Virus record (IMG/VR): IMGVR_UViG_3300029927_000113
Strand: one strand, 5' to 3'
Source of the DNA: a virus
DNA: 42,173 bases
The notes under the pieces are model-generated. The model searched no databases. It was not told where the DNA came from and saw nothing but the letters and a program-made list of their open reading frames with translations. Position 1 is the stretch's first letter. Each line of letters opens with the position of its first letter. Below are positions 2,104-32,886 of the stretch, one piece after another. The position numbers were made by a program, and so were the translations under genes.

Positions 2104-4296
2104 ATGTCTAAGAAGGATCTTATTATAAAGATTGGGAGTAATGTTGATGGCCTAAAAAGAGGCATGTCTACTGCGCAAATAGCGATTACTGCGGTTTCTG
2201 CAGCAGTAGGTGCAACAGCTATCGCAGCTGCTGCGGCTGTTGAAGAATTCCGTAATTTTGAAGCAAAATTTTCAGACATTGTAACATTGCTTGATGATGC
2301 TTCTTTTACTACAAAGAATTTTAAACAAGGCGTTAATGATCTTCGTAAAGGCTTGCTAGATTTAAGGGCAACATCTGGGCAATCATTTGATAATTTGAGC
2401 AAAGGATTATTTGATCTAGTATCAGCTGGCGTAGAAGCAGAAAATTCTATTGATGTTTTGCGTATATCTACTGATCTAGCTCTTGCAGGTGCCACTGATG
2501 CAAGCGTTGCTGTTGATGGTTTAACCTCCTCTCTGAATGCATATGGATATGAGACCAGTGAAGCGCAGGCAATTGCAGAGAAGTTTTTCACAGCTCAAAA
2601 ATTTGGTAAAACTACGATAGAGGAGCTTTCAACTGACTTTGGTAAAGTTGCTGCGACTGCATCATCTATGGGTGTTTCTTTTGATGAGGTCTTAGCATCT
2701 GTCTCTGCAGCCACGTTAGCAGGTATAGAGACAAATGAAGCGTATACAGGCTTAAAAGCAGTCCTTTCAAATATTATTAAGCCTTCCAAGGATGCCGCGG
2801 ATGAGGCAAAAAGACTTGGTATCGAGTTTGATTCTAGCGCACTAAAAGCAAAAGGGTTCGAAGGCTTTTTGGACAGTATAACCTCTTCAGCAAAATTTAA
2901 TGGAGAGACATTAGAAAAATTATTCGGGTCAACTGAGGCCTTGAATATAGCTTTTGCCTTAACAGGAGGGCAGGCGGATGATTTTACAAATATCTTAAAA
3001 GAGTTATCTGATGAAACCAAGCGTGCAGAAACTTTTCAAAGTGCTCTTGCCGAAAAGGGAAATACCTTAGACCAGAAACTATTAAAACTTGATGGTTCTG
3101 CCTCTCGCCTCAAAGCAACACTAGGTGAAAAATTAGCACCGGCTTTCGGGGACTTGGCTGAAGGTGCTGCACAATCCTTAGATTATATGAGCGATCACGT
3201 TGATGATTTAGCTATGAGCGTAGATGGTCTTTTGGGAGCGCTGGTTGACGCATCTCTTGCTTTAACGGATTTGATATCAAGCTCTGCTGGTGTGCAATTA
3301 GGTGACCCGTTTACTGAGGTTGATCCCGGAAAAATTCTAGATGAAATGCGTGGGTTTCAGAATGTTGATGCCTTTGCGGCATTGATAGACTCTTCACAAG
3401 TAATGGCCTCCGGTGTTTTAGAAAACTTTGAGAAAATTAATGAAAAGGAAGATGAGCTTGAGAAAATAAGAAAAGCTAGGGAAGAGGTGAGACTTAGCCG
3501 TGAAAAAGAGATTATGGATAAAAAATCCGCACGCGAGGCCGAAGCATATGCAAAAAAATTAGAGCGTGAAGAAGAGCAAAGAGCTGCGCAATTAGAGCGC
3601 GACGATGAACAGTTTGAAGAAGACGTTGCACGTTTACTAGAAAAACTATCTGGAATTGACGAAGTTGAGGCACAGTTCTCTGGTTTAGCTGAGTTGCGTG
3701 AATTAAAAAAATTGAAACTTAAAGCGCGAAATGCAGAACAAATAAAGAAAATTGATAAAGCAACAGCAATAGCTTCAATGAAGGCTTCTGAACTATCAAC
3801 TCAAGCATCAATAAAAAAATTGCAAACAGTGCTTTCAGAGGAGACCGTAGTCGGCAAGGCAATATTTCTTATACGTAAGGCACAAGCTATAGCGAATACA
3901 ATATCTAGCACACAGCAAGCGATGGCTCTGGCTCGTGCAACAGTTCCACCTCCTGGTGGCGATGCTCTCGCGGCAAAATACGCGCTGCAAGGGGCTATAA
4001 ATGTGGGCGTTATTGCCGCTACTGCTATCGGTGCTGAAAAGGGTGGACAAGTTCAGGGCGTGGGTAGAGGGGATAAAGTACACTACATGCTAGAGCCAGA
4101 AGAAATAATAGTTCCCCAAAGCCATTCTAAGACTTTTTCTCAGTTGTTTGGAAATTTTCCAGATTTATCAGAGGCACCTTTGCCTGCTTCAGGCGGTGGT
4201 GGAGAGCTAAATATTACTATCGGTTTTACCGATGATGCAAGTCAGGTTTTAGCGATTGACCAGTTCGAAGATACGAGAATAGGGGTGTCACGATGA
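2104..4296 (+). CDS. Tape measure protein
   Basis: 730 aa, Ala/Gly-rich and helical, with a long E/K/R coiled-coil segment (REKEIMDKKSAREAEAYAKKLEREEEQRAAQLERDDEQ). Position after G/GT. Confidence 0.9.
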   Translation: MSKKDLIIKIGSNVDGLKRGMSTAQIAITAVSAAVGATAIAAAAAVEEFRNFEAKFSDIVTLLDDASFTTKNFKQGVNDLRKGLLDLRATSGQSFDNLSKGLFDLVSAGVEAENSIDVLRISTDLALAGATDASVAVDGLTSSLNAYGYETSEAQAIAEKFFTAQKFGKTTIEELSTDFGKVAATASSMGVSFDEVLASVSAATLAGIETNEAYTGLKAVLSNIIKPSKDAADEAKRLGIEFDSSALKAKGFEGFLDSITSSAKFNGETLEKLFGSTEALNIAFALTGGQADDFTNILKELSDETKRAETFQSALAEKGNTLDQKLLKLDGSASRLKATLGEKLAPAFGDLAEGAAQSLDYMSDHVDDLAMSVDGLLGALVDASLALTDLISSSAGVQLGDPFTEVDPGKILDEMRGFQNVDAFAALIDSSQVMASGVLENFEKINEKEDELEKIRKAREEVRLSREKEIMDKKSAREAEAYAKKLEREEEQRAAQLERDDEQFEEDVARLLEKLSGIDEVEAQFSGLAELRELKKLKLKARNAEQIKKIDKATAIASMKASELSTQASIKKLQTVLSEETVVGKAIFLIRKAQAIANTISSTQQAMALARATVPPPGGDALAAKYALQGAINVGVIAATAIGAEKGGQVQGVGRGDKVHYMLEPEEIIVPQSHSKTFSQLFGNFPDLSEAPLPASGGGGELNITIGFTDDASQVLAIDQFEDTRIGVSR

Positions 4297-5111
4297 GTAT
4301 GACAGGTGGGTTTTCATTCTTTGATGTTAATGCCGCAGCACTATTTGACGGCGCTACAATTGTCGCATCAACCAACCAAGATGATGCGAATTACATCCTA
4401 TCTGGTGAGAAGGCATATCGCTGGCAATCTGTCGGATCTGATGATGTAACACAAGAGGTGATGACCATTACTTTGCCTGTGCCGGTTAAGTTTGATCGTC
4501 TGTTTTTGGTGCAGCATAATTTTAAAGGTTTTACGATAAAATATGGCGCGTCACTCGATTTTACAAATGTAAGGGGTTTAAACGGAAACACTGCAAATAT
4601 TAGTGAAGCCGATTTTACTTACGATACTGCATATTATGAATTTGATGCCGTAACGACCGACACCATTATTATTACAATTGATACAACGCAAATTGCGAAC
4701 GTAGAAAAATATCTGATGTGGTTTATTGCCACGACAGAATTGGGTACTTTTATTGGTTACCCGCAAAATCCAAACTTAACACTTGATCGTAAAATAACGC
4801 GTCAGAAAAACGCCGCCAAAGGTCAGCGCATACTAAAACATAAAGAGCGCGCTAAACTCAATATTGATATGAAGCATTACCCAATACAGCAGGATATAGA
4901 CTTGTTGTCTGATTTGCAGGATCGTGATGATCCTTTTCTTGTGTGGCCTCATGGCGGTAAACCAGCGCAATTTCGTTTGAGAATACGCGGTTACCGTACA
5001 AGGGACATTTTTTTGATGCAGATATCATCGCCTATGGGTGTGGGCTTTTTTAAGAACACATATAGCTTAAGCGGTGAAACAAAAGTTAAAATGGAGGAGG
5101 TTGATCGATGA
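4293..5111 (+). CDS. Distal tail protein (Dit-position), N-terminal galactose-binding-like segment
   Basis: 272 aa, ATGA-type overlap with the tape measure gene. The assignment is positional. Confidence 0.5.
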   Translation: MSMTGGFSFFDVNAAALFDGATIVASTNQDDANYILSGEKAYRWQSVGSDDVTQEVMTITLPVPVKFDRLFLVQHNFKGFTIKYGASLDFTNVRGLNGNTANISEADFTYDTAYYEFDAVTTDTIIITIDTTQIANVEKYLMWFIATTELGTFIGYPQNPNLTLDRKITRQKNAAKGQRILKHKERAKLNIDMKHYPIQQDIDLLSDLQDRDDPFLVWPHGGKPAQFRLRIRGYRTRDIFLMQISSPMGVGFFKNTYSLSGETKVKMEEVDR

Positions 5112-6331
5112 ATAATATTCGCGTGTTAATTACACCTCTACATTATGATGGCATTTACGGTGATGAAGTTGATGTCACCAAGGATATCGACATAACCTCT
5201 CTGGTTAAGGACAACCTTGGCAAAATTAGCCGCGAGATTGATAACGGTGATTTTGATTTCGGCGTTTTCGTTTTCGGATCGATTACTCTTCGTTGTTATA
5301 ACGACGAAGGTTTTTTCAGTATGCCTGAAGATAGCCGAAGTATTTTCAAATATCGCCGTGATTTAGCACGGGTAAAAATAGTATATGTGTCCACTGTAGA
5401 ATCTGTTTTGTTTGAAGGCATCATAAATGAGGACACGTCCCGCGATGAAGATTTACCGGACGATGACATAAAAACAGGAACCATAAAATTCCGGGTGTTA
5501 TCACTGGATAGTATTCTGCGCCATACCAAGGTTGCTGGTGGTGCTATTGCAACGGGGGTTACAATCTCTACTGCGATTAAACAGATATTAAATACGACAT
5601 ATATTACCAATGTCCTGAATTTTGACCCTTCGAAAATAACAGTAGATACGGACGTTGTTATTGATGATGGTGATTATTTTACAGGTGCAAGTGTTAAGGA
5701 AGCACTCGACGAATTGCTCTTAGCCGCGAATTCTATACTTCTAATTGATGAAGCGCATAATATTATAGTTACGCCACGTGTCGAAAATTCAGCTTTACAT
5801 AAGCTATACGCCCCGCATGATCGACTTGGGCGCGGCAATATAATGCAAATCAAGAATTACAATAATGGCCTTCAGCGATGTTTCTCTGCCGTTAAAATCA
5901 ATGAAACCGAAATAGTAAATCTTGCCGCTGTAGGGGATTATGGCCATAGGCAGAAATCTATTTCACTAGATTTTATAACATCGGTGGTGAGTGAAGAGAT
6001 TATAGCCGGAAATATATTGGCGGAGTTCGATACGCCTAGAAAAGAATGTGTTGTCAAAGTTCCCTTTGATGATATCGCAGGCGTAAAATTACTGGATCAA
6101 GTCGAAATTGATTATCCGCTGCAGGTTCTACCGCCAAAAGGCGAACAATTCATCACGACAGTTAATACGTTTGTTCTAGGGCAGAGCAAAGCCAACCGTG
6201 TCCGTGGATCAATAAGCATATTACCAAAATTAAGGTGGAAGATTATAGGCATATTTCACGGCCTAAAGTATTTCACTACGGAATTAAAAATACGCCATGT
6301 GGGCAAAGAATATGGGCAGGGAGTAATCTAA
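5108..6331 (+). CDS. Tail hub / Tal-position protein
   Basis: 407 aa, 4-nt overlap with the upstream gene. The assignment is positional. Confidence 0.5.
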   Translation: MNNIRVLITPLHYDGIYGDEVDVTKDIDITSLVKDNLGKISREIDNGDFDFGVFVFGSITLRCYNDEGFFSMPEDSRSIFKYRRDLARVKIVYVSTVESVLFEGIINEDTSRDEDLPDDDIKTGTIKFRVLSLDSILRHTKVAGGAIATGVTISTAIKQILNTTYITNVLNFDPSKITVDTDVVIDDGDYFTGASVKEALDELLLAANSILLIDEAHNIIVTPRVENSALHKLYAPHDRLGRGNIMQIKNYNNGLQRCFSAVKINETEIVNLAAVGDYGHRQKSISLDFITSVVSEEIIAGNILAEFDTPRKECVVKVPFDDIAGVKLLDQVEIDYPLQVLPPKGEQFITTVNTFVLGQSKANRVRGSISILPKLRWKIIGIFHGLKYFTTELKIRHVGKEYGQGVI

Positions 6332-10351: not shown

Positions 10352-12586
10352 ATGTTGATGAAAATTGGTGGAATTGGATTAGGCGGTAGGGTGATTGGCT
10401 CATCCGAACCAGCGGGGCAAACCGCGCATATATTTTTAACAATCGGGAACTCCCACAATATTGGTAGACCAACGGCTTCGGGTGATACGTTTGATGCGAA
10501 AGTGTGGGAATGGACGCAGGGTGACGCTTTGGCACAACCCGCCGCCGCGATGCTAGATCATCAAAACGACACGACAACCGATATCAGTCCAGACCTATCT
10601 TTTTCAGCGGATTACATTGCCGCGAACCCCACAATTGACCGCCTTGTATTCGTACCACATGCGCGTGGTAGTACCGGATTTTCGGACAATGCATGGTCTG
10701 CCGATACAGTGCCGAACGATTTGAGTTCTGCCGTTACGCGGTTCAATGCCGCCTATGCACAACTTATCGCGGATGGTTATACGGTTACGGTGGGTGGCGC
10801 GTTCTGGCATGCAAATCGCCCTGATTTCGATAGTAACAGTCATGAACAATATCAAATTGATATTGATGCGATGGCTGCCTATCTCCGCGCAAACCTCACC
10901 GATGGTGCAAATATCAAATTCGCTATCGGCGCGGGAATGACGAAAGTGCAGCTCGATGGTCGCGGCTTATCCAAGGATTTAAACTTCCAAGCAATAGTAG
11001 ACGGTACGCAACATCGTGTGGCCTATACAGGGACGTATGATTGGATAAATTCACCTCGATACGGCAAGACTTACGCAGGTCTTCCAGTGCAAACAACGGA
11101 CGGCGTACACGCTGATCGTTTGGGTGTAATAGAGCAAGGGCATTTGCGTTATGACGCATTGCTACGCGCTCAAGCAAACACCAAACCGTCCGATCCATTC
11201 CAAAGCCTTGCAAGTTGGTCTGATTGGAAAGCGTTCCATGATTTTCGTACTGGAACAGGCTTGGATATGACAGGCAATGGCTTTCATGCAGCTCAAGCCG
11301 ATGCAGTAACAAACACCGCCAATATGAAATACGACACAGTGACAAGAAGCATGGTTTATGACCGTATCGCGGCAGATGTGGCTCGATATTTTCATGCTGG
11401 CGTACAGCTTGGGGCATCTTATACAAAGGCGTTGTTTTTGAGGTTTGATGATCTTAGTGCGACAATTGGTATCTTTCAAAACCACGATGAAGGCGTTCGT
11501 TTTTTCTACACTGTTGGTTCAAATGAAATTCGTGCGTATCACAGCTCAAGCAGTGCTCGTGTTGATATATCAGGCAATGATATAATCTTAGGGAAGTGGC
11601 ATAGCTTGGTGGTCACGTATGATGAACCAACCACCACTATGAAGATTTACCTTGATGGTGTCCTCAAAGGAACAAACGCCGCCGTGGCCGCTCATCCAGC
11701 CGTTGTGAATGAAGCGATCGGGGCGCAAAACTTGGTAGGGCTTCGTGGTTTTCGTGGGGCGATGATGTACGCCGCGCATTCCTATAGTGCAATGGATCAA
11801 ACAGCTATAACCGCACTCAACACCGTATCACAAAACCTTGTCACACCGTTTGTAGTACAGACACCCGATGAAATACCTGCTTTATTTTCGTGGAGAAACC
11901 CACGTATTGACATCTCTGTAACGCGCGATGGTGGAGAATTGGTATCTAATGAGCAAGACACGTTTGGGTCGTTGGATGCACTCCAATCGGACGAACCGCA
12001 TAAACCTTTATATGTTCCTGCGAGTAATTATGTTCAATATGGCGGTGGTGCAGGCAATCAAGAGTTCCTTGAAATGGGCGCGGTTGCTTTCGGTTCGGAT
12101 GATTTCTCAATCTCTATATGGGGTTACTCTGACGTACAAACTACATTTGTCCAAAAATGGATGAACCTTAGTGATGGCACAACTTCCTCTTTGGTGACTA
12201 TAGGCACGCATAACGCTACACCTTCTATCAGATGTTCTGTAAGGGATGCCTTAGGCAATGTTGTGACAACTTCGCTAAATACCCTTTTAACAGGGAAATG
12301 GTATCACGTGGTGATGAGTGTAGATCGTGCAAATAATCTCATTAAATATTACGTTGATGGTCTACTCAAAGTGACCGTAGATATTTCCGCATTAACCGAT
12401 GTCATAAACATGGATGGTGGCTCATTCGTTAACCTATTAGGTAAAGAGACCAAAGCCGATGGCACGTATTCCAGAGCATTCCAAGGAAGACTTGGGGATG
12501 ATCATATCTACAAAGGCCGCGCATTAACTGCGGATGATGTGACCAATATTTTCAATGATGGAACGGCGGATTATAGTAATCCTTAA
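10352..12586 (+). CDS. Large SGNH/SASA-type carbohydrate esterase-like protein with two LamG (concanavalin-like) domains
   Basis: AAGGA RBS. The N-terminus IFLTIGNSHNIG matches the GQSNM-type block I, and TTDGVHADRLG matches the DxxH block V. Two repeats of the LamG_3-like signature: GKWHSLVVTYDEPTTTMKIYLDGVL and GKWYHVVMSVDRANNLIKYYVDGLL. Confidence 0.6.
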   Translation: MLMKIGGIGLGGRVIGSSEPAGQTAHIFLTIGNSHNIGRPTASGDTFDAKVWEWTQGDALAQPAAAMLDHQNDTTTDISPDLSFSADYIAANPTIDRLVFVPHARGSTGFSDNAWSADTVPNDLSSAVTRFNAAYAQLIADGYTVTVGGAFWHANRPDFDSNSHEQYQIDIDAMAAYLRANLTDGANIKFAIGAGMTKVQLDGRGLSKDLNFQAIVDGTQHRVAYTGTYDWINSPRYGKTYAGLPVQTTDGVHADRLGVIEQGHLRYDALLRAQANTKPSDPFQSLASWSDWKAFHDFRTGTGLDMTGNGFHAAQADAVTNTANMKYDTVTRSMVYDRIAADVARYFHAGVQLGASYTKALFLRFDDLSATIGIFQNHDEGVRFFYTVGSNEIRAYHSSSSARVDISGNDIILGKWHSLVVTYDEPTTTMKIYLDGVLKGTNAAVAAHPAVVNEAIGAQNLVGLRGFRGAMMYAAHSYSAMDQTAITALNTVSQNLVTPFVVQTPDEIPALFSWRNPRIDISVTRDGGELVSNEQDTFGSLDALQSDEPHKPLYVPASNYVQYGGGAGNQEFLEMGAVAFGSDDFSISIWGYSDVQTTFVQKWMNLSDGTTSSLVTIGTHNATPSIRCSVRDALGNVVTTSLNTLLTGKWYHVVMSVDRANNLIKYYVDGLLKVTVDISALTDVINMDGGSFVNLLGKETKADGTYSRAFQGRLGDDHIYKGRALTADDVTNIFNDGTADYSNP

Positions 12587-12616
12587 GTGAGGGTTGCTAC
12601 GGCCATACGAAGACTT

Positions 12617-13360
12617 CTATTTCTTTACTGCTTTTTTTCGTTGCTGTCTTGGAGGTATTCTTTCTTTCAACGCTTCTGCCTTATCTGTAAGAATTAAATT
12701 CCTATAAATAAATTGTTCAACAATATTTATCATAGTATGAAGTTCTGGTTCTGTTGGACTCCAGCTGCGGTGGGCAGCCGCTCCACCTGCATCAGTAAGA
12801 ATATCTAAAACTCTCTTTTCATCTATTCCTATCTTCCCCTTCAAAAGTAAATCATCTAACTTTTTTTGAAAAGATTGTGCAGTATCAATTCCCAAAGCTT
12901 CTGTCGATGCGTCAAAGGCTGTTCTTATACCTGTTGCTGTTAGGATCTTAAGATCACTATTAAAGGCTACATATATTTCTTGAAGGATATTATACAGGGG
13001 TTCATTTGAAATTTTTATTTTGTGAATCCAAATCGGCTTTTTTCGCCGGATTGGAGATGGCCAATAAGATATATCTTCATAGTAATTCTCTTCAACCTCG
13101 CCAGTAATAGGGTGATAATATTTGTTAATATCTTCTGAAAACACACTTATAGTTTGATGATAGACTGTTTCACACCCACAGCACTTTAATATTCTATGTC
13201 TATAAAGCATCCAAACACAGTTATAGTCATCACCATCCTCATCTTTAAACTCATACTTGGCAACAATATCCGCATTAATTTGTCCACCACAATCTGGACA
13301 ATTTGCCTTTATTTTTTCTACTGTCATTTTTTGTCTGTCCATATAATGAAGATTTAACAC
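12617..13360 (-). CDS. Zn-ribbon + DUF4145-like domain protein (accessory; function unknown)
   Basis: N-terminal CPDCGG...CCGCETV cysteine pairs. The C-terminal part, LYNILQEIYVAFNSDLKILTATGIRTAFDASTEALG...LLLKGKIGIDEKRVLDILTDAGGAAAHRSW, follows the DUF4145 pattern. AT-rich, convergent with the late operon. The true start may be an internal Met (MDRQK or MTVEK). Confidence 0.55.
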   Translation of the reverse strand: MLNLHYMDRQKMTVEKIKANCPDCGGQINADIVAKYEFKDEDGDDYNCVWMLYRHRILKCCGCETVYHQTISVFSEDINKYYHPITGEVEENYYEDISYWPSPIRRKKPIWIHKIKISNEPLYNILQEIYVAFNSDLKILTATGIRTAFDASTEALGIDTAQSFQKKLDDLLLKGKIGIDEKRVLDILTDAGGAAAHRSWSPTEPELHTMINIVEQFIYRNLILTDKAEALKERIPPRQQRKKAVKK

Positions 13361-13561
13361 TTATTTTCTAATGTCCGCTTTGAGAACATATCAGAAATAT
13401 TATAAATCACCAGAATAAGAAATTCCTTCTAAACGAGGGAAGGGGTGCGTCAACACCCCTTTACCGCAAGCCTTAACTTGCATGACTACAACTGGCCTTG
13501 TCTTGGCCATCCCGCCTATCAGCCGATAGATGGGGAATTATGCATGTAAAAGGTTAAAAAA

Positions 13562-14392
13562 ATGGAATCCTTCTCACAAGTTCGCCCCCGCGAACCCGTT
13601 GCCCCGTATCAGGGTGGAAAATCCAAACTGGCAGATACGGTTATCTCATACATTAATCAGATACCCCATAACACCTATGCGGAGGTCTTTGTCGGTATGG
13701 GTGGGATATTCCTTCGCCGTGATTACAAGCCACCTGCAGAAGTCATCAACGATTACAGCCGTGATGTGTCCAACTTCTTTCGTGTCCTTCAAATACATTA
13801 TGTGGCGTTTCTGGATATGCTTAAATGGCAAATCACAACGCGTACAGAGTTTGAACGTTTAATCTCCATTGACCCGGACACATTAACCGATATGCAGCGC
13901 GCTGCACGCTTTCTGTATCTGCAGCGCACTAGCTTTGGCGGTAAAATTACAGGGCAAAATTTCGGCGTATCCAAGGATCGTCCAGCACGCTTTGATATAA
14001 CAAAGCTCTCAGCAACTTTAGAAGATGTCCATGAACGCCTGTCCAGCGTAACTATTGAGCGATTGGATTATAAAGACTTTATACGGCGTTACGATCAACC
14101 CGAATGTCTATTTTATTTGGACCCCCCATATTATGAGTGTGAATCCGATTACGGCAAAGAACTGTTTGATCGTGATGAGTTTCCAAAGATGGCAGATTTA
14201 CTGGCCGGAATAGAAGGGAAGTTCATCGTATCTTTAAATGACCACCCCGATGTCAGAGATATATTTAAAGCGTTCCATATTATAAGTGTAGAAACGACAT
14301 ATTCAATTTCCTCAAAAGAAAGCCAAAAAGTAGGGGAGGTCTTAATAACAAACGCTCAAGATCACTTCAGATCAGATGATCTGTTTGCTTAG
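13562..14392 (+). CDS. dam: DNA N6-adenine methyltransferase, Dam/D12 class
   Basis: PYQGGKSKLA, FVGMGGIF (motif I) and FYLDPPYY (motif IV, DPPY). Confidence 0.85.
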   Translation: MESFSQVRPREPVAPYQGGKSKLADTVISYINQIPHNTYAEVFVGMGGIFLRRDYKPPAEVINDYSRDVSNFFRVLQIHYVAFLDMLKWQITTRTEFERLISIDPDTLTDMQRAARFLYLQRTSFGGKITGQNFGVSKDRPARFDITKLSATLEDVHERLSSVTIERLDYKDFIRRYDQPECLFYLDPPYYECESDYGKELFDRDEFPKMADLLAGIEGKFIVSLNDHPDVRDIFKAFHIISVETTYSISSKESQKVGEVLITNAQDHFRSDDLFA

Positions 14393-15175
14393 TATTTTTC
14401 GTTCATAAGCCCCTTCAAAGTCAGTAGCTATGTAATCGAAGTCCAAATTTCCTAAAAGATCATACTTGTCTGTTATATAAAGCATCAAGTCTTTCCCATT
14501 GGGGGTCGCAAGCAAATAATAAATTGCCATTTGGTTTCCTGCGGTTATTTCAGTTTTAATTAAGGCGATATATAAACCTTTGTTCGTAATATCACTAAGA
14601 TTAACAAATGAAATTACATTATTAAGACGTTCTATATAAGGGTAATGATCCATTCTTAACCCATCGATTATATTATTTATAATCTTATTGGCATCTTCAG
14701 AATACTTTGACGTTCCTCCATCTGAACGATTTCTTGTTAGTTCTACGTTTATGTTATAAGCGGCATCTCGAAATTTTTTTGCATCGCTAGAAGAAAGTAA
14801 TCGTAATAATTCGAAAAATGTATTTTCAAATTGCTGTCTCCGCATTGTTTGGTTCTGTAATTCCATTTGCGCCCTTTGCTCTTCTAGCGCTTGTTTCTGG
14901 TCAACCATAACTTCACGAGTTTTTTCAAGGTCTAGTCTTTGAAGTTTCAATTCTTGGCTCTGAAGCACGATGGCAATAACGACCCCAATAAACGCAAAGC
15001 CTGAAAATAGAGCATTCACACCGCCAAACATGTCACCAAAAGTACCAGGCTGTATTGCTTCACCTTTATAGAGAATAGGAACCGCAACGAGATTAACAGT
15101 TAGTGCTACTACGACGAAAGCAGCAGCGCCGAGCGCGAATTTAATCCAAGTGTTTTTATCTTCTTTTTTTTCCAT
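14372..15175 (-). CDS. Membrane protein resembling putative abortive-infection protein AbiC family (putAbiC-like)
   Basis: Two N-terminal TM helices with FGDMFGGVNALFSGFAFIGVVIAIVLQSQELKLQ, then a Q/E-rich coiled coil, then QQFENTFFELLRLL. This order matches my recollection of the putAbiC family (Pfam number from memory, PF16872). The 3' end overlaps dam by 21 nt in convergent orientation. Confidence 0.55.
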   Translation of the reverse strand: MEKKEDKNTWIKFALGAAAFVVVALTVNLVAVPILYKGEAIQPGTFGDMFGGVNALFSGFAFIGVVIAIVLQSQELKLQRLDLEKTREVMVDQKQALEEQRAQMELQNQTMRRQQFENTFFELLRLLSSSDAKKFRDAAYNINVELTRNRSDGGTSKYSEDANKIINNIIDGLRMDHYPYIERLNNVISFVNLSDITNKGLYIALIKTEITAGNQMAIYYLLATPNGKDLMLYITDKYDLLGNLDFDYIATDFEGAYERKILSKQII

Positions 15176-15429
15176 AGCTGCTTATACCACAAGCGCGTTA
15201 ATGCTCAAACTCATCTAAACTTGGTAATGCTCGTTGATAGCGACGTGTATTTTAACACCTATATATATGTGTCTTTATGGCACGCTCTATTCACCAAAAG
15301 AGAATCAGAATCTAAGGTGACTTGAAAAAAATGTGTTAGATATGGTTCATATTGTCGAATTTGCTCTGCTGATCAACAACATTCCACTGTATTTCATAAA
15401 TAAAACGAATAAATATATGCTATATTTTT

Positions 15430-15690
15430 ACCTACAAAGGGTATTTATGGGATGTTCCAGCCTACATATAACCTACACTAAAAAATTATACGTTACAAAT
15501 CAATGCTTTAATTGTACAATCCGTCCAATCCATCATCGGGGCAACGGATATTGGTATAATCGCGGTTTTCTGCGGTAAGCCTACGGTTTCTGCGGTGTTC
15601 TTGGTGTTACTCATTGTTCTGTTCTAACTTATTTACATACATTTTAATACATTTTATTGACATTGAACCTACATATAGCCTACAAAAAAG
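15430..15690. repeat. Cluster of short direct repeats in the int-proximal non-coding region (attP arm-site candidates)
   Basis: CCTACA-type motifs near 15431, 15461, 15472, 15579, 15668 and 15679, including CCTACATATAACCTACA and CCTACATATAGCCTACA. GGTTTTCTGCGGT / GGTTTCTGCGGT lie around 15564-15596. TACATTTTA occurs twice around 15636-15655. Confidence 0.4.
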
Positions 15691-15720
15691 ATTGGACGAT
15701 CTAGTATTGGTGGCTTACTT

Positions 15721-16764
15721 ATGGCGAATTATAGCATAGCAAAACGCAGCGGCAAGTATTGTTGCCAATTACGCTGGATCCCTACAGGTACAAATAAACG
15801 TAAGTCTTGTAGCAGAACTTTCACCCGAAAAGCAACCGCCGAGGCATGGGGGAAGAAAAAACTTAACGATCTTGAGGCTGGTTTGTCTGCAGGAGAGGTT
15901 TTTGAATCTGTTTTATTGGGTGAGCTTCTTGATAAATACTTAGATGATAGGCATGTAAATATTGGCCGCTCAAAGCGTTATTCGTTAGCTATGATACGTG
16001 ACAGTGATATTGCCTCCATCGAGACGAAGAATTTGACCCCAAAACATATTGTTGATTATTGTAAGGATAGAAGTGACGCGGGAGCGAGTGCGGCCACAGT
16101 GTCGTGTGATGTAAGTAACCTACGTTCTGTTCTTAAGTGCGCCGAGGCTTTGTATGACATCCCTGTGACGGTGGAACCCATTGTTAAGGCCATGCCTACG
16201 CTTCATACATTAGGCCTGGTGGGTAAGGCAAAGATTAGAACGCGCAGGCCAACCAATGATGAAATTACGCGCTTACGCACAGGCCTGTTGGCTCGACAAA
16301 ATGGGCGAGGCGCGATCATTCCTTTTGTGGACCTATTAGATTTTTCCATACTAAGTTGCATGCGCATCAGTGAGGTGTGCAATTTAAAATGGGATGATTT
16401 GAATATTAATGAATCTTGGGTGTGGGTACGTGATCGTAAAGACCCGCGTAAAAAGGTTGGTAATCATATGAAGGTTCCACTGTTGGGTGGTTCTCTAGAT
16501 ATAGTGCTACGCCAGAAGAAAACTTATGATCCGCGTATATTCCCCTATAACAACACCTCTGTCAGTGCAGGGTTTCAACGTGTGCGTGATCAACTGGATA
16601 TTGAGGATTTACGTTATCATGATTTAAGAAGAGAGGGTGCAAGCCGTTTGTTCGAAGCAGGCTATAAGATTGATGAAGTTGCGCAAGTAACTGGGCACCG
16701 TGATTTAAATACATTATGGCGTATTTATACCGATTTGAACCCAACTAGAATTACCGACCGATAG
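15721..16764 (+). CDS. int: Tyrosine site-specific integrase
   Basis: 347 aa. The C-terminal catalytic region contains CMRISEV, HDLRREGASRLFEAGY and VTGHRDLNTLWRIYTD (R..HxxR..Y pattern). Confidence 0.9.
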   Translation: MANYSIAKRSGKYCCQLRWIPTGTNKRKSCSRTFTRKATAEAWGKKKLNDLEAGLSAGEVFESVLLGELLDKYLDDRHVNIGRSKRYSLAMIRDSDIASIETKNLTPKHIVDYCKDRSDAGASAATVSCDVSNLRSVLKCAEALYDIPVTVEPIVKAMPTLHTLGLVGKAKIRTRRPTNDEITRLRTGLLARQNGRGAIIPFVDLLDFSILSCMRISEVCNLKWDDLNINESWVWVRDRKDPRKKVGNHMKVPLLGGSLDIVLRQKKTYDPRIFPYNNTSVSAGFQRVRDQLDIEDLRYHDLRREGASRLFEAGYKIDEVAQVTGHRDLNTLWRIYTDLNPTRITDR

Positions 16765-22291: not shown

Positions 22292-22340
22292 CCGTTCTGA
22301 TCGTCACCCCCACACACATTGGCGATCAGGGCGGTTTTTT
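22292..22340 (+). terminator. Rho-independent terminator
   Basis: 12-bp stem CCGTTCTGATCG / CGATCAGGGCGG (two G-U pairs), a 19-nt loop, then T6. Confidence 0.6.
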
Positions 22341-23004
22341 ATTTCCAATTACAGGTTTTTTTCAGTGGAATTAATGCTTCGCTTAAGCCTGTTGTATCAA
22401 AGATAGCAGTAATGGGTGACTCGGAATAAGGCGTAACTTGTGCCAATAATTTATTATATTTTTCCATTTGCTTAATGAACGCAATGGTTCCAGTTGGGTG
22501 AAATGTTGCTTTAGAATCCGTGGATACCGACCATCTTTTAGTACGTGCTTTCTCATTACCAATTCTAGTGAGCACATCAACATTACGCCCCAGAAAATCA
22601 TGCCATGTTAACATTAGTTCTGTCTTGTTACTCTTACAGCGGATTAGCATGGTTACAATGTCGTCACGTCTGGACTTACCACTATCAGCTTTTAAGTGAA
22701 GATAAACCGATTGTGAATCGTCAATTGGATTACTCTTTTCGTTAACGCTCCATTTGCTAGGCTTTGGTGGCTCCATTCCAACTAGAGCTTGCCAGTTATC
22801 ATCTTTTTGTATCGCGTTTACTGTGGTGTTAACTGTTTGGGGTTTATCTAGTTTATTATCCTCGGCAAGAGTATCGTAACATTCCAGTCTTTCTAGATCA
22901 CCTTCTAGGATTGCGCATGTGGCAACTGAATGTTTTAATTCTGCGGCATTTACGGGCAGGGAGGCCAACATTGCAATGAAAGTGATTGCATAATTTTTTT
23001 TCAT
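22339..23004 (-). CDS. Secreted/periplasmic protein with four conserved-looking Cys (moron downstream of the repressor gene)
   Basis: Signal peptide MKKNYAITFIAMLASLPVNA|AE. ATCAILEGDLERLECYD motif, and a C-terminal ...LIPLKKTCNWK. Lies 13 nt downstream of the cI-like gene on the same strand. Confidence 0.7.
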   Translation of the reverse strand: MKKNYAITFIAMLASLPVNAAELKHSVATCAILEGDLERLECYDTLAEDNKLDKPQTVNTTVNAIQKDDNWQALVGMEPPKPSKWSVNEKSNPIDDSQSVYLHLKADSGKSRRDDIVTMLIRCKSNKTELMLTWHDFLGRNVDVLTRIGNEKARTKRWSVSTDSKATFHPTGTIAFIKQMEKYNKLLAQVTPYSESPITAIFDTTGLSEALIPLKKTCNWK

Positions 23005-23017
23005 AAGACTTATAGCT

Positions 23018-23389
23018 CTATTTTGATTTCAGTTTATTCTTACGGCTCTGTATGTTTTTAAGATCTCGTGTGAAATTTGCGAGTTCTTCTTTGTAAACAT
23101 CATCAAAACCTTGCCACGCACTTTGAATTTGTTCAAACGCTTCATCGACTTCACTATTTTTTCTCATATTACCATTGCCTGAAATAAGCCATTTCTCTTC
23201 AACATCAATAAACTCACAGAATTTATTCTGATATTTCTGAGGCATTGGCCTATCTATTTCGTACGCTGTATAGGTATTTCTTGCGACGCCAATATAGTCA
23301 GCAACTTGCTTTTGATCAAAGCTAGTGCTGGCTCTGGCTTTCTTGGTACGAGCTATATATTCAATTTGGCGATCCGATAAACTATTCAT
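23018..23389 (-). CDS. CI-like repressor (HTH only, no S24 peptidase domain)
   Basis: FDQKQVADYIGVARNTYTAYEIDRPMP is an HTH, followed by EEKWLISGNG. 123 aa. Divergent from the Cro-like gene. Confidence 0.7.
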   Translation of the reverse strand: MNSLSDRQIEYIARTKKARASTSFDQKQVADYIGVARNTYTAYEIDRPMPQKYQNKFCEFIDVEEKWLISGNGNMRKNSEVDEAFEQIQSAWQGFDDVYKEELANFTRDLKNIQSRKNKLKSK

Positions 23390-26648: not shown

Positions 26649-26818
26649 AATTAAACACCCTACGTTACGACCACATAAAACTAGCCGCGACCCATAGTGA
26701 ATTTATAAATGAGGTGATTAACCATGCGCATGATCGACGTGATCCAATATTAGAGGATTTGGCGCGTAGTTATCGCGATGCCATGCAAAAGGATATGGAG
26801 GGCAGGGAATGCGTTTAA
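26645..26818 (+). CDS. Small hypothetical protein (57 aa)
   Basis: ATGA overlap with the methyltransferase stop. MKLNTLRYDHIKLAATHSEFINEVINHAHDRRDPILEDLARSYRDAMQKDMEGRECV. Its stop overlaps the stop of the convergent antitoxin gene. Confidence 0.4.
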   Translation: MKLNTLRYDHIKLAATHSEFINEVINHAHDRRDPILEDLARSYRDAMQKDMEGRECV

Positions 26819-27342
26819 ATCAAATCTTCCATTGCAACACCCAGAGCCTCGGCCAGACTTTGAATACCCTCGACACTGCCCGTTTTCTTGCCTGTTTCGA
26901 TTTGTGCGATCATGGATCGACCAACTCCCGACATTTCGGACAACATCAATTGCGAGTATCCACGATAGTTGCGGAAAACCATAACAGGGCTGTCCCCGCT
27001 AATCATTGCCTCGACAACCTCGGAGGGAAAACTTTCCTCATCTCTGGTCTCAAGGAATGCAATACGGTCTTTAAGGTCTCTATTTTCTATCAACAGTTTA
27101 TTTTCAAGTATAGAGTTAGACGTGGAAACGGGTCTTTCGAAACATACATCTTCATAAGTGATAATTTTTTTAAGCTGAGCAAATTGTCTGATTTTATCCT
27201 GCACTTTACGCACAGCATCTTCAGTAATTGTAGCGGTAATATCTGCACTATCATGAGCAGACCTTCCTATGCGGTTTGTAACAAGGTGACCGCCATCAGC
27301 TTTACGATTTTTAACTTTATCATTTTGTCTCTTAATATTCAT
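26815..27342 (-). CDS. HigA/XRE-type antitoxin with long N-terminal extension
   Basis: C-terminal HTH: GYSQLMLSEMSGVGRSMIAQIETGKKTGSVEGIQSLAEALGV. 175 aa. ATGA-coupled downstream of the RelE-like gene. Confidence 0.75.
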   Translation of the reverse strand: MNIKRQNDKVKNRKADGGHLVTNRIGRSAHDSADITATITEDAVRKVQDKIRQFAQLKKIITYEDVCFERPVSTSNSILENKLLIENRDLKDRIAFLETRDEESFPSEVVEAMISGDSPVMVFRNYRGYSQLMLSEMSGVGRSMIAQIETGKKTGSVEGIQSLAEALGVAMEDLI

Positions 27343-27617
27343 TTTTTATACACATCCCCTCTGTTTCCAATTTTAAATATTTCTAATATCTTAATTTCTG
27401 TATCAACAGTGTATAGCACTCTGATATCTCCAAATCTTTTGCGGTATCCATTCTCTACATCCAATAATGGCTTTATATTTACATCTGGTTTAAATGGGTC
27501 TTTCGCAACCTCTTTCATTCCAGCCACAATGGTTTTGGCCTTTGCTTTTTGCATCTTCCGTAAAGTTCTCAATGTTTTCTTTTTGTATGTCGTTTCCATG
27601 TATTCATTGTTACCCAT
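27339..27617 (-). CDS. RelE/ParE-superfamily toxin (HigB-like gene order)
   Basis: C-terminus KRFGDIRVLYTVDTEIKILEIFKIGNRGDVYKK is the typical RelE/ParE signature. 92 aa. The toxin gene precedes the antitoxin. Confidence 0.8.
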   Translation of the reverse strand: MGNNEYMETTYKKKTLRTLRKMQKAKAKTIVAGMKEVAKDPFKPDVNIKPLLDVENGYRKRFGDIRVLYTVDTEIKILEIFKIGNRGDVYKK

Positions 27618-27658
27618 AGTAACAACAAAGTCAAGGGTTATTGTTACCTATAGTAACA
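27606..27658. promoter_or_regulatory. Two copies of a 19-bp palindromic operator upstream of or overlapping the relE-like start
   Basis: ATTGTTACCCATAGTAACA (27606-27624) and ATTGTTACCTATAGTAACA (27640-27658) are 18/19 identical. Each carries a TGTTAC/GTAACA dyad. Centres are 34 bp apart. Confidence 0.5.
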
Positions 27659-27673
27659 TATTTTTAGGGGGAA

Positions 27674-29128
27674 ATGCAAATGCATCATAATCAAGACTTT
27701 CCCAGTATAGATAATGTCCATAATTTGCCACCTATAGAGCCACACAGCGGCGAAGCGGAGCAGGGGTTACTTGGCGCGTTGTTGGTATTTAACAAAGCCT
27801 ATGACGATATATCATCAACCTTAAGGGCAGAACATTTCTACCTCCCCATTCATCAAGAGATATTCACCGCAATCTCCAAAGCAATAGGTGAGGGGAAAAC
27901 CGCATCACCAGTGTTTTTGAAAGCACAATTTGATAATGATAAATCATTAGAATACTTAGGCGGCGCACAATATTTAAACGACCTTGCCGCAGGCGTAATA
28001 AGTCAACTAAACGTCAAAGATTATGCCGCGACGATCAAGGAGCTATTTGATAGGCGTAATTTGATTACAGGCCTGCGTGAGGTATTGGACGCCGCATATA
28101 ATACCAGTATCCTTGACCGCGGAACTGTCTTGGAAATGGCAAATCAGGCCGTGAATACGTTGGTCGATGATATGCCATCACGACAATACACCGCCGCCTC
28201 TGCCATATCAGAGGCCTTGGCATTTACCCAAGGCATTAAAGACGGAACAATTTCACCCATCAAGACAGGGTTGAGGGAATTGGATGGCGCAATAAACGGC
28301 CTGTATTCATCGTGCCTTTATATTATTGCGGGTAGACCCGGCATGGGCAAAACCGCCCTTGCCATGAACATGGCGGAGAATATCGCAAACCCAGAGTTTG
28401 GTAGGCCTACACCGTCCGCATTCTTTACACTTGAAATGTCCGCACCTCAATTGGCGATGCGTATATTGGCACGCCACACAGGCATTCCAGTTGATAGGCA
28501 AATGAGTACGGATAAATTAAGCGATGATGAATGGAGGCGCTTAACCTCCGCACAGCAAAAACACGCAAAAACGCCGTTAATCATTGAGGATTGTGCGGGT
28601 GTAAATTTGGCCCAAATAATATCCAAGGCCAGAAAGATACGCCGTACGCATGGTAAGTTTGTGATGTTTATTGATTACCTTGGTTTGATTTCTTCAGAGC
28701 ACAACAACATACAAATGGTTCATCAAATTGCGGCCATAACCAAAGGACTAAAATCTCTGGCCAAGGAATTGGATATCCCTGTTGTATTACTGTCGCAGCT
28801 ATCCCGAAAGGTAGAAGAACGCGAGGATAAGCGCCCATTAAAATCCGACCTACGCGATAGTGGAGCGATTGAACAGGATGCAGATGTGATCATGTTCCCA
28901 TACCGCCATGAATATTACCTCGCCCGTCAGGAACCCATAAAAACCCAGAATACAGGCGGCGGCAAACATGAACAGAAGGTACGTGACTGGGAATTTGAAC
29001 TTGGTGAATCGCGCGGCAAAGCCGACATCATTATCGCCAAAAACAGATATGGCCGAGAGCCAACAATCAAACTTCGCTTTAACGGTAAAAGACAATTATT
29101 CCATGATATTTCAGAAAGGGTTCAATGA
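27674..29128 (+). CDS. dnaB: Replicative DNA helicase DnaB
   Basis: GEAEQGLLGALL N-terminal motif, Walker A GRPGMGKTALAMNMA, LSQLSR, IIAKNRYG. Confidence 0.9.
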   Translation: MQMHHNQDFPSIDNVHNLPPIEPHSGEAEQGLLGALLVFNKAYDDISSTLRAEHFYLPIHQEIFTAISKAIGEGKTASPVFLKAQFDNDKSLEYLGGAQYLNDLAAGVISQLNVKDYAATIKELFDRRNLITGLREVLDAAYNTSILDRGTVLEMANQAVNTLVDDMPSRQYTAASAISEALAFTQGIKDGTISPIKTGLRELDGAINGLYSSCLYIIAGRPGMGKTALAMNMAENIANPEFGRPTPSAFFTLEMSAPQLAMRILARHTGIPVDRQMSTDKLSDDEWRRLTSAQQKHAKTPLIIEDCAGVNLAQIISKARKIRRTHGKFVMFIDYLGLISSEHNNIQMVHQIAAITKGLKSLAKELDIPVVLLSQLSRKVEEREDKRPLKSDLRDSGAIEQDADVIMFPYRHEYYLARQEPIKTQNTGGGKHEQKVRDWEFELGESRGKADIIIAKNRYGREPTIKLRFNGKRQLFHDISERVQ

Positions 29129-30380: not shown

Positions 30381-30447
30381 ACATCTTAAGCTAATCAATT
30401 TATGGTAGTTTTCTTAATAGTATAAGTTGAGTGGAATAATAAATAAT

Positions 30448-31734
30448 ATGGTAAGTATTAATAAAAAAAGCAAAAAACCTACTATCTACAGGATTACATC
30501 CGTATGTGGCGAACATATACCGTTCCGAACTAAAAAAGATCTTATTAAATGGTGCGAGAAGGAGGCCTTATTGTGGTCTACGTTTTTTGGTGTTTTTTCG
30601 AAATATGTTAATTCAAATAATAAGATCATGGGAAATGAAGGAAGGAGAATTTATTCAGAACTCATGAAAGAAATTCCAAAATACCAAGTAGAACCATATG
30701 AAACCTTAATTGAGACTATACTACTCTCGAACAATAGTATTGAAGGTGTAGAACGTGCGGTTAGTAATTTTAATGCTTCACCGTCATATGTATCCACGTC
30801 TGAGAAGGGTAAGAAAATAATTGAATTAAGTCATGATAGGATTGGAGTGTCAGTTTTACTTTTTTCTATTTTGCATCCAAATATTTGTGTTGAGACTATG
30901 CATATTACTACTGGAAACTATGCCAATGCTGCTTCTACAAAAGCAGTAAGTGCTGATTTGAACTATGCTCGAATAGAAGCATATCTTATTGAAAGTCAAT
31001 TTTTCTCAGAAACGAAGACTAAGAATGACATCTTGGATAAAATAATTTTTGATTCTAGATCCAAGCGTCATATGGCAGAAGAACTTTACACCGATCAAGT
31101 GGATTTAACTAATAAGATAAAGGATAGTTTGAGCAAGCTGGCTGCAGAGAAAACTCAAGAAATTGCAGAGTTTACCGAAAATCAGAATAACCTGCTAAAA
31201 GAAGAAAAGTTGAAATATGAGAATACATTAAAATCTCTAACGGAAACATATAAAACTGAATATGGGGTAAGGGAGGCTATTGAATACTGGAAGACTGAAC
31301 AACAGCAGTTTACTATCAATGCTACTCTTTGGGCTGTAGCACTCCTCGCCCTAATGTTGGCTTCTGTTAATCATTTTTCACTACTATTTTCATTCGTTTT
31401 GGAGGTCTTAGATACCCTTCCAGACTACGCTAAGTCACACTACGTTGTAATGTTCACAGTTTCTTTTCCAGTCTTCTTAGTAGTCTGGGTATTAAGGATT
31501 TGTGCAAGAAACTTGAACTGTAATTTAAGATATATGAATGAGGCCAGACATAGATTGGTTTTGACTAAAACCTTTTTGGCATTAATGGCAGGGGGACAAG
31601 CGGAAGGACCAGATAGAATATTAATCCTAAATGCTCTGTATCAGCCCCTAGAAAAACATTCCGATGATGGTATGCCTCCAAATTGGTACACATTAATCAT
31701 GGAACGTATGTCCAAAGATGTTGGCAAAGTGTAA
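30448..31734 (+). CDS. Membrane protein: soluble N-domain + coiled coil + C-terminal 2TM module (unknown function)
   Basis: Likely starts at ATG 30448 (MVSINKK); the track uses TTG at 30427. TM helices ATLWAVALLALMLASVNHF and VVMFTVSFPVFLVVWVL, followed by RICARNLNCNLRYMNEARHRLVLTKTFLAL. Very AT-rich. Confidence 0.6.
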   Translation: MVSINKKSKKPTIYRITSVCGEHIPFRTKKDLIKWCEKEALLWSTFFGVFSKYVNSNNKIMGNEGRRIYSELMKEIPKYQVEPYETLIETILLSNNSIEGVERAVSNFNASPSYVSTSEKGKKIIELSHDRIGVSVLLFSILHPNICVETMHITTGNYANAASTKAVSADLNYARIEAYLIESQFFSETKTKNDILDKIIFDSRSKRHMAEELYTDQVDLTNKIKDSLSKLAAEKTQEIAEFTENQNNLLKEEKLKYENTLKSLTETYKTEYGVREAIEYWKTEQQQFTINATLWAVALLALMLASVNHFSLLFSFVLEVLDTLPDYAKSHYVVMFTVSFPVFLVVWVLRICARNLNCNLRYMNEARHRLVLTKTFLALMAGGQAEGPDRILILNALYQPLEKHSDDGMPPNWYTLIMERMSKDVGKV

Positions 31735-31827: not shown

Positions 31828-32886
31828 TCAACCTTCCTTCGCTGCCTTAATGATTGCAGTGATATCTTTAAGGCTTGCACCTTCAATTGTTTCGGTTCTG
31901 ATTTTATCCAGCTCAACCGTGCTTTCACCTTTTTTCAGTACAAAATTTCTCTCTGTATTGGATAGTTTCTCAATCAATTTATTGATAACGGCTTTATTTT
32001 CATGTCGTATAGCAACTGTAAGCGCAAGGAAGGTCATCTCTATATTGGTCATTTCATTCTGAATATATCTGATTTCTTCTAGTCCTGATCTGTAAACACG
32101 CAAGAAGAAATAGGCGAAGGTTTGTATCAGTATACTGACCGATAATTTCGGAAGGAATGCTGCTAAGAAGTTCTCATTATTTATAGGCGTTAGACCAAGG
32201 AAGTTAGGGAACGCCGCAAAACTCAATATAATAACCGCAACGACAGTGAATGAAATACTGGTAATCATGGTTCGCCTGGTTCTTACCTTTAGCAAGGCGA
32301 TATATTCTATTAGTCTGATCTTTGTTTCACTGTATTGGTTTTCCACGTGGGATAGGGTTTCATAATCTCCGATATTTTTTTTATATTTTCTTTCAATATC
32401 ATTAGATATTTTTTGTAGAGCATTTTTATTTATTGATGCTGTAGACACTTTAGCTTTATCGAAATGATTTTCGAAGTTGAAGTCATATGATTTGAACATA
32501 TTACTATTGAGATTTCTCATCCATATTTCGTAATCTGATGGGCTGAAACTGTGCTGCATTTCCCTTGCTACGGCATCGTACTCGCCAAGCCTCCAATGTT
32601 TTGAGAAAAGAGGAAGAAGATAAACTAATGCAGCACTAGCTGTTGCTATTGTCATTGCTTTGAAAGCATTGCTCTTTTCGCCCCCCCAAAACACCTCTGA
32701 AAATCTAGGGCCAAGCTCGTTGAATCCAAAAACATCTAGTATTGCTGTCAAGATTATTAGAGCAATTAAAGTTAACGCCGTAAATCTCCACAAATTCGCT
32801 TTTTTCTTTAATTTCATTTCATTGTCCAAATCTGCCGAACTAGCCGCATCACTTTTGGCAGTATCTTCATTATCCATATCTGACAT
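31828..32886 (-). CDS. Four-TM membrane protein (unknown function), convergent with the previous gene
   Basis: TM pairs at LWRFTALTLIALIILTAILDVF / AMTIATASAALVYLLPLF and MITSISFTVVAVIILSFAAF / LSVSILIQTFAYFFL, followed by RVYRSGLEEIRYIQNEMTNIEMTFLAL. AT-rich. Confidence 0.6.
   Translation of the reverse strand: MSDMDNEDTAKSDAASSADLDNEMKLKKKANLWRFTALTLIALIILTAILDVFGFNELGPRFSEVFWGGEKSNAFKAMTIATASAALVYLLPLFSKHWRLGEYDAVAREMQHSFSPSDYEIWMRNLNSNMFKSYDFNFENHFDKAKVSTASINKNALQKISNDIERKYKKNIGDYETLSHVENQYSETKIRLIEYIALLKVRTRRTMITSISFTVVAVIILSFAAFPNFLGLTPINNENFLAAFLPKLSVSILIQTFAYFFLRVYRSGLEEIRYIQNEMTNIEMTFLALTVAIRHENKAVINKLIEKLSNTERNFVLKKGESTVELDKIRTETIEGASLKDITAIIKAAKEG

Follow-up and report, generated by a model that had tools for sequence, protein, structure and literature searches.

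The E. coli protein RAZR (PD-T7-4), a ring-activated zinc-finger RNase, is a single-gene abortive-infection system that becomes active when its zinc-finger domain assembles on rings of the phage portal or of Gp77, with R146 and H154 being essential (PMC13017515; PMC9519451). A second E. coli protein with a HEPN and a zinc-finger domain, DS-38, has been validated as a defence protein, and its zinc-finger domain is unlike that of RAZR (bioRxiv 10.1101/2025.01.08.631726). The DUF4145 domain is itself a HEPN family with known fusions to zinc ribbons and restriction modules, and the Rx4-7H motif is retained in only ~80% of DUF4145 proteins (Anantharaman 2013, PMC3710099). Among membrane proteins, lactococcal AbiC, with two transmembrane (TM) helices, and AbiP, with one TM helix and the ability to bind RNA or single-stranded DNA, have been grouped as AbiC/P, with a mechanism that is still unclear (PMC13064643). 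AbiP, as a nucleic-acid-binding protein, blocks the switch-off of phage early transcripts. Three genes are considered here against this background, namely a zinc-ribbon/DUF4145 gene (ORF1), a D12-class adenine methyltransferase gene (ORF2) and a gene for an AbiC/AbiP-group membrane protein (ORF3), which lie at positions 12,617 to 15,175 of the viral record IMGVR_UViG_3300029927_000113, the whole 42,173-nucleotide stretch of which is referred to as the window. The region is likely to be an accessory-gene (moron) slot of a temperate phage, holding three separately acquired and independently acting genes, and ORF1 and ORF3 are, by analogy with the systems above, probable single-gene anti-phage proteins of the suicide type. 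Such an arrangement would be an example of a temperate phage that has accumulated, next to int, an anti-restriction methylase together with several candidates for single-gene abortive infection, and it points to one sizeable relative of the newly characterised RAZR class.

The first-pass annotation of the window, made from the letters alone, had offered two views of these genes: a defence module whose parts cooperate, with self DNA marked by the methylase, or three independent morons. Co-localisation was evaluated in 80 genomic and 69 viral loci with ORF3 relatives and in 29 viral loci with ORF1 relatives, with flanks of up to 10 kb on each side; all six-frame open reading frames (ORFs) of these loci were searched with family hidden Markov models (HMMs), and an ORF3 relative was confirmed in 147 loci. 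An ORF1-family gene was found in none of the 147, and a related D12 methylase in two, in both cases 4–5 kb off and non-adjacent. Similarly, neither an ORF3-family (putAbiC) gene nor a related D12 methylase was present in any of the 29 viral ORF1-family loci. In the genes directly flanking 79 putAbiC genes, 148 in all, no Pfam family occurred more than four times, with PF02086 and PF13643 found at most once each, and the partner families likewise appeared at most once among the 89 immediate neighbours of ORF1-family genes. The other two families were also not nearby in the case of the closest ORF3 relative (39% identity) or of an ORF1 relative from Achromobacter. The neighbours of ORF3-family genes carry mixed defence domains (AAA_15, TIR_2, AAA_21, Mrr_cat, Eco57I, SLFN (Schlafen) and PIN), a miscellany that is expected for a single-gene system residing in defence islands.

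The view of three independent morons was borne out by this lack of co-occurrence and by the recurrence of each family alone in unrelated phages, whereas the cooperating module found no conserved co-localisation to sustain it (no ORF1/ORF3 pairing in 147 and 29 loci), one of the outcomes that the first-pass annotation had named as refuting it. In its fullest form the module would be a compact restriction-modification and abortive-infection system resembling PD-Lambda-5, with self marked by the methylase and unmarked invaders attacked by ORF1, ORF3 or both. The adjacency of the genes beside int, a secondary PADLOC match of ORF2 to PD-Lambda-5_B (E = 1.5e-26), the compact prophage nature of PD-Lambda-5 itself (PMC9519451) and the occasional fusion of DUF4145 to restriction enzymes (PMC3710099) are in keeping with it. 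Nevertheless, this module is considered highly improbable: besides the missing pairings, the three genes alternate in strand and are discordant in base composition, and the likeness to PD-Lambda-5, which extends to a prophage-borne location and a D12-like methyltransferase, is offset by the lack of a PD-Lambda-5_A homologue and by the much better fit of the MTase_II model. Moreover, neither ORF1, with its HEPN/RNase-type fold, nor ORF3, an AbiC/AbiP-type membrane protein, is a DNA nuclease, and a methylase marking self would be left with no reader, because neither protein contains anything able to recognise a methyl mark on DNA. The three-gene system as such is of no importance, since its linkage is an accident of the cargo slot of one phage.

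As solitary cargo, the ORF1 relatives of viral contigs were found mostly in P2-like phages, between gpR/gpS and gpV/gpW; of 23 non-redundant ORF1-family loci scanned, 12 had the V/W baseplate genes directly downstream and 7–8 had the R/S tail-completion genes directly upstream. In P2 itself the same slot, flanked by the terminator of the O operon and the promoter of V, is occupied by the non-essential Orf30, and because this protein is unrelated, the S/V slot can be regarded as a variable cargo position. Orf30 was itself considered as an ORF1 relative and rejected, with an hhalign probability of 0.04 and no Pfam domain. On an Achromobacter chromosome, an ORF1 relative (stretch 314–1776) lies among hypothetical genes, with proteins carrying the conflict-system domains MC2 (PF20288) and CTD6 (PF20282) ~4 kb away, so that the family also occurs outside recognisable prophages. 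ORF3 relatives were found in the filamentous Vibrio phage (inovirus) vB_VipaK (PF16872, E = 3.9e-22) and in the Mu-like Shewanella phage vB_SspS_MuM16-1 (stretch 2864–5690), in the latter within the head-morphogenesis operon, where a transcriptional-regulator gene separates the relative from an annotated RNA-directed DNA polymerase ~1 kb away; this ORF3 relative and the reverse transcriptase may form a small defence cargo cluster. Homologues of ORF2 with 52–60% identity are present in unrelated temperate phages with different neighbours each time, directly after tail or lysis genes in phiE125 and POA1180 and two genes from the recombinase gene in Mae-JY29.

The G+C (GC) content of ORF1-family genes is below that of the flanks in all 26 viral loci (mean of −11 points), and that of ORF3-family genes is below the flanks in all 64 viral loci (mean of −8 points) and in 97% of the genomic loci (mean of −9 points). 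Low GC is a trait of these two families regardless of the GC content of the host and not of the island, and the lower GC than the surroundings in nearly every locus offers a simple marker for spotting such cargo. The earlier description of the region as an AT-rich three-gene island holds for ORF1 and ORF3, which rank at the 4th and 10th GC percentile among 750-nt windows, and fails for the methylase, which ranks at the 73rd and exceeds the genome mean of 41.5% (gene values in Table 1). The region has the properties of known moron hot spots, such as the lambda b region and the P2 S/V slot with Orf30, in which low-GC genes, often on the opposite strand, lie between conserved modules and vary among related phages, and no essential difference from these was recognised.

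ORF1 was assigned to DUF4145 (PF13643) with E = 2.3e-12 and 47.2 bits (cutoff 23.1), covering profile positions 1–88 of 88, and it also matched phrog_1305 (E = 2.9e-27). Its likely start is the ATG at 13327, on which the public annotation and the N-termini of homologues agree. The AlphaFold2 (AF2) model, with a predicted local distance difference test (pLDDT) score of 93, comprises a five-stranded beta domain (residues 1–89), a conserved Pro/Trp-rich linker and helices spanning residues 101–223. The Cys4 motifs, CPxCG at residues 10–14 and CxGC at 49–52, are preserved in the family, with C10, C13, C49 and C52 each conserved to at least 90%. Across 147 representatives obtained by clustering at 50%, R135, H186 and W189 do not vary, and R187 is retained in at least 90%. 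When the helical half was compared by Foldseek, the HEPN protein 2hsb was matched with probability 1.00 and a TM-score of 0.71 on the target, together with the HEPN toxin 7ae8 and the HEPN proteins 7ae6 and 6m6u, with E values of only 0.1–0.7. The family is large, with 3258 clusters (50% identity, E ≤ 1e-3), 608 of them at E ≤ 1e-30. A tblastn search of ORF1 against 50,697 phage records returned no match, and Foldseek against BFVD returned two unnamed viral proteins. The family profile likewise retrieved no related chain, RAZR or HEPN, from the PDB sequences at E ≤ 10, with uncertain coverage of entries 9Y9C and 9Y6U.

ORF1, itself uncharacterised, is related to a class for which the mechanism was established in 2026. 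Its likeness to RAZR, which is known here for comparison by its description and its PADLOC model, lies in a single protein of ~220–240 aa with an N-terminal Cys4 zinc ribbon, a conserved linker and a C-terminal DUF4145/HEPN domain, encoded by a stand-alone gene without a conserved partner, on mobile elements near integrases, with the zinc-ribbon half being the more variable. The differences are also evident: the zinc-ribbon domain of ORF1 is larger (~89 aa with five long strands, compared with ~65 aa in RAZR), ORF1 falls outside the PADLOC PD-T7-4 family, and the catalytic pair R146/H154 (Rx7H) of RAZR is replaced in the ORF1 family by H186 with T, A, I or V at the Arg position, in addition to R135 and R187. 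By its description DS-38 follows the same two-domain logic, and ORF1 could belong to the DS-38 family or to a third family. It is concluded with moderate confidence, from analogy, that ORF1 would work like RAZR without being filed as RAZR. More tentatively, and at less than even confidence, the ORF1 family might constitute a large phage-borne set of zinc-ribbon-HEPN immune sensors paralleling RAZR, with a larger sensor domain, a re-wired active site (H186-R187 and R135 replacing Rx7H) and fixed cargo slots (the P2 S/V slot and the lambdoid b region) across Proteobacteria, which would recognise other phage assemblies and cleave RNA to abort the infection. If this were true, the family would show how far a zinc-ribbon sensor and a HEPN active site can diverge under the same sensor-effector logic.

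ORF3 is marginal to its Pfam family, with 22.8 bits against PF16872 putAbiC (cutoff 22.0), and it also matched phrog_8999; its 686 homologues nearly all carry PF16872. The protein presents, in order, TM1, TM2 with the invariant family motif GxFGDMFG..NALFSG, a long coiled coil, a FENTFF motif and a divergent putAbiC helical domain. Hydrophobic windows start at residues 9–20 and 49–60, and the AF2 model (pLDDT of 87) consists of helices at 7–35 and 43–127, with residues 263–267 below a pLDDT of 50. Foldseek against the PDB retrieved generic helical bundles only. When 28 aligned relatives of ORF3 were tested with PADLOC, AbiP was matched by 24 (best E = 4.8e-19) and AbiC by 18. On sequence grounds, ORF3 appears to belong, as a divergent protein, to a known Abi family (AbiC/AbiP group). 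Its likeness to these proteins comprises the single-gene organisation, the N-terminal membrane anchor (with two TM helices as in AbiC), the all-helical extramembrane domain and the occurrence of the family in defence-rich neighbourhoods and phages, whereas it differs in its origin from a Gram-negative phage and in matching neither PADLOC model. The first-pass assignments of ORF1 to DUF4145 and of ORF3 to putAbiC were both upheld by the HMM searches, marginally so for PF16872, and their defence flavour agrees with the experiments on zinc-finger-DUF4145 proteins (PMC13017515). The three Pfam numbers given by the first-pass annotation, PF13643, PF02086 and PF16872, proved to be correct.

ORF2 is a D12-class N6-adenine DNA methyltransferase, scoring 85.8 bits against PF02086 (cutoff 22), with the FxGxG (FVGMGG) and DPPY motifs intact in the translation. 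It matched the PADLOC model MTase_II PDLC03253 with E = 1.2e-60 and phrog_56 with E = 2.5e-83, and is a common phage methylase type. The earlier name, Dam methyltransferase, was right as to this enzyme class and went too far as to the GATC-specific Dam subfamily, for which ORF2 scored below the NCBIfam cutoffs (85.9 against 114.85 for TIGR00571 and 27.9 against 441 for PRK10904); GATC specificity is for this reason not established. In the genome GATC is neither depleted nor enriched (157 observed and 150 expected sites). PADLOC revealed no restriction enzyme and no PD-Lambda-5_A partner, and Pfam no nuclease domain in the flanking ORF1 and ORF3, so ORF2 is regarded as an orphan methylase. Compared with the orphan D12 methylases of phages (phiE125 gp27 and POA1180 gp30 and, more distantly, Dam of P1 and T4), ORF2 shares the D12 fold and the FxGxG...DPPY order, likewise lacks an adjacent restriction enzyme and is likewise found close to the integration module, where the late operon ends, the difference being that it falls below the Dam equivalog and subfamily cutoffs.

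From these comparisons we infer a defence phenotype for ORF1 and ORF3, a time of expression for each gene and a purpose for the methylase. The variable zinc-ribbon domain of ORF1 would sense a protein of the superinfecting phage and thereby activate the HEPN domain, which, by analogy with RAZR, would cut cellular and phage RNA and thus abort the infection. ORF3 would be anchored in the inner membrane by its two TM helices with the helical domain probably in the cytoplasm, and would abort or exclude incoming phages in the manner of lactococcal AbiC and AbiP, perhaps through nucleic-acid binding as in AbiP. ORF2, which shares the orientation of the late operon as its counterparts in other phages do, would methylate the phage DNA before packaging, so that the progeny might escape restriction in the next host. 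The prophage would probably express ORF1 and ORF3, and the methylase would probably be made in lytic growth.

Some observations weigh against this interpretation. The RNase activity of ORF1 is uncertain because the canonical Arg is absent 8 residues before the invariant His: the Rx4-7H motif is not found, position 178 being T, A, I or V. The PADLOC PD-T7-4 model was matched neither by ORF1 (E ≤ 1) nor by 146 of its relatives (E ≤ 0.01), and ORF3 itself barely passes the Pfam cutoff and has no PADLOC AbiC or AbiP match at E ≤ 0.1. The timing of expression is pure conjecture, since a sigma-70 promoter scan found no sites upstream of ORF1, ORF2 or ORF3 and a total count equal to the shuffle expectation. 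In addition, the three public copies of the region are identical and provide no natural variant with separate gain or loss of the genes. Independent genes without a defensive role were considered, ORF1 being then a zinc-ribbon nucleic-acid-binding regulator with a catalytically dead HEPN scaffold and ORF3 a membrane protein that serves some other purpose, for instance in lysogenic conversion or in the timing of lysis. The missing HEPN Arg and the failure of PADLOC to match ORF1 or ORF3 fit this alternative, as do the label 'DNA binding protein' of phrog_1305, the co-orientation of the ORF1 relative with the late tail genes in P2-like phages and the location of the closest ORF3 relative among housekeeping genes. 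It is nonetheless judged quite unlikely, because the invariance of R135, H186 and W189 and near-invariance of R187 argue for a retained active site, defence genes typically show the constant low GC and the patchy occurrence in cargo slots that are seen here, and the neighbours of the ORF3 family are enriched in defence domains, with most of its aligned relatives matching AbiP or AbiC.

The independently acting genes meet at one point, where ORF2 and ORF3 converge. The 21-nt overlap of their 3' ends had been given exactly by the first-pass annotation, as had the lack of a terminator between them: a 6-bp hairpin occurs there, but its fold is no better than those of shuffled sequences (z = −0.01 and −0.63), and it was rejected as a terminator. 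The three GATC sites of the overlap were also considered as a methylation switch and rejected, such a density being reached in 26% of random placements (p ~0.26). Inverse transcriptional coupling of the methylase and ORF3 may reasonably be expected, and the overlap would make the two mutually exclusive in time as a by-product of insertion, with no designed circuit. A selected two-gene expression switch, in which the terminator-less overlap keeps the late methylase and the prophage-expressed ORF3 exclusive, would be compatible with independent functions of the genes and is regarded as rather unlikely. It accords with the 21-nt overlap lacking a significant hairpin, with the analogous overlap of 18 nt in MuM16-1, where the ORF3 relative converges on a late virion morphogenesis gene, and with the finding that, for 12 of 75 genomic ORF3-family genes, the next gene downstream lies on the opposite strand at a distance of less than 50 nt. 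On the other hand, the overlap partner differs in every case and nothing is specific to a methylase, no promoters were identified, and such overlaps are common in compact phage genomes. The same geometry with another partner in MuM16-1 suggests that the overlap is a generic outcome of tail-to-tail insertion.

The features of the region and its surroundings are collected in Table 1. The three ORFs agree in coordinates and strands with the first reading (12617–13360 on the minus strand before choice of the ORF1 start, 13562–14392 on the plus strand and 14372–15175 on the minus strand). Their placement between the end of the late operon and attP/int, the position of the lambda b region, was likewise confirmed, with the lectin-domain gene on one side, the integrase gene on the other and direct repeats between.

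Table 1. Coordinates of the cargo genes and neighbouring features in the window.
Feature	Coordinates	Strand	Description
Tail-fibre-like gene	10352..12586	+	Last gene of the late (virion) operon; 744 aa; Laminin_G_3/concanavalin-like lectin domains (PF13385, E = 2.4e-27)
ORF1	12617..13327	-	236 aa; Cys4 zinc ribbon and DUF4145 (HEPN superfamily); 35.0% GC
Stem-loop	13440..13461	.	GC-rich, 8-bp stem, in the ORF1/methylase divergent spacer; minimum free energy hairpin, z = −2.45 on + and −1.38 on -
ORF2	13562..14392	+	276 aa; D12-class N6-adenine DNA methyltransferase; same strand as late operon; 43.6% GC
Overlap of methylase and ORF3 3' ends	14372..14392	.	Convergent, 21 nt; three GATC sites; no significant hairpin
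ORF3	14372..15175	-	267 aa; two N-terminal TM helices, coiled coil, putAbiC C-terminal domain; 36.4% GC
Non-coding spacer upstream of int	15176..15720	.	AT-rich, 35% GC; candidate attP region
Tyrosine integrase	15721..16764	+	PF00589, E = 8e-19; right edge of the cargo region

The left boundary of the cargo region is the end of the tail-fibre gene. Just upstream of int, direct repeats of 22 nt (CCTACATATARCCTACA...) are located at 15461–15482 and 15668–15689, with a spacing of 207 nt, and a third, partial copy at 15459–15470; these repeats are candidate arm-binding sites of the integrase that would mark attP. The spacer that contains them presumably also holds the promoter of ORF3. The stem-loop between ORF1 and the methylase was not called a terminator by the consensus scan, and a classical terminator would have a stronger T tract; it could possibly act as an insulator or weak terminator. 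No Rfam match was found in 12400–16000.

The window is an essentially complete temperate-phage genome. A perfect 24-nt tandem repeat, GAGGCTCAAGCCAAGATCGATGAG, is present at both ends, at 1–109 (4.5 copies) and at 42075–42173 (4.1 copies), and because of this identity the contig looks like a circular or complete genome assembly, broken inside the repeat. The repeat probably lies inside a coding gene spanning the junction and would encode an 8-aa repeat. The phage is a novel, undescribed marine gammaproteobacterial temperate phage; the best terminase matches, from Wolbachia WO and Ralstonia prophages, reach only ~45% identity, and it therefore has no close described relative. The region had no match by megablast in collections of phage and E. 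coli sequences, and an integrase-based search of IMG/VR for sister phages with other cargo in the same slot found none. The three public copies, which include the Gammaproteobacteria metagenome-assembled genome record JAESRS010000022.1 (42.9 kb) and two JGI metagenomes, are 100% identical across the three-gene region.

Other cargo was also observed elsewhere in the genome. A second low-GC patch (34–37%) contains a gene for a 435-aa DUF6161 membrane protein at 30427–31734 on the plus strand, with a weak PADLOC match to AbiZ (E = 1.9e-5, aligned over 165–372 of 398), and a gene at 31828–32886 on the minus strand for a 352-aa orphan with no family match. In view of this patch, abortive-infection-like cargo may be present at several separate sites. 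At 26815–27617 on the minus strand, within a patch of 35% GC and opposite the early-right genes, a ParE-family toxin of 92 aa (PF05016) overlaps by 4 nt with a 175-aa protein with a C-terminal HTH_3 domain, as a HigBA/ParE-like toxin-antitoxin pair; this pair conflicts with a 293-aa ORF on the plus strand at 26809–27690, one of the two readings being spurious. Finally, in the immunity region, a gene at 22339–23004 on the minus strand lies directly downstream of an HTH_19 repressor-like gene (23018–23389, minus strand) and encodes a 221-aa protein that matches VasI (PF11319, E = 1.3e-14), a family of type VI secretion accessory proteins, which is unusual phage cargo.

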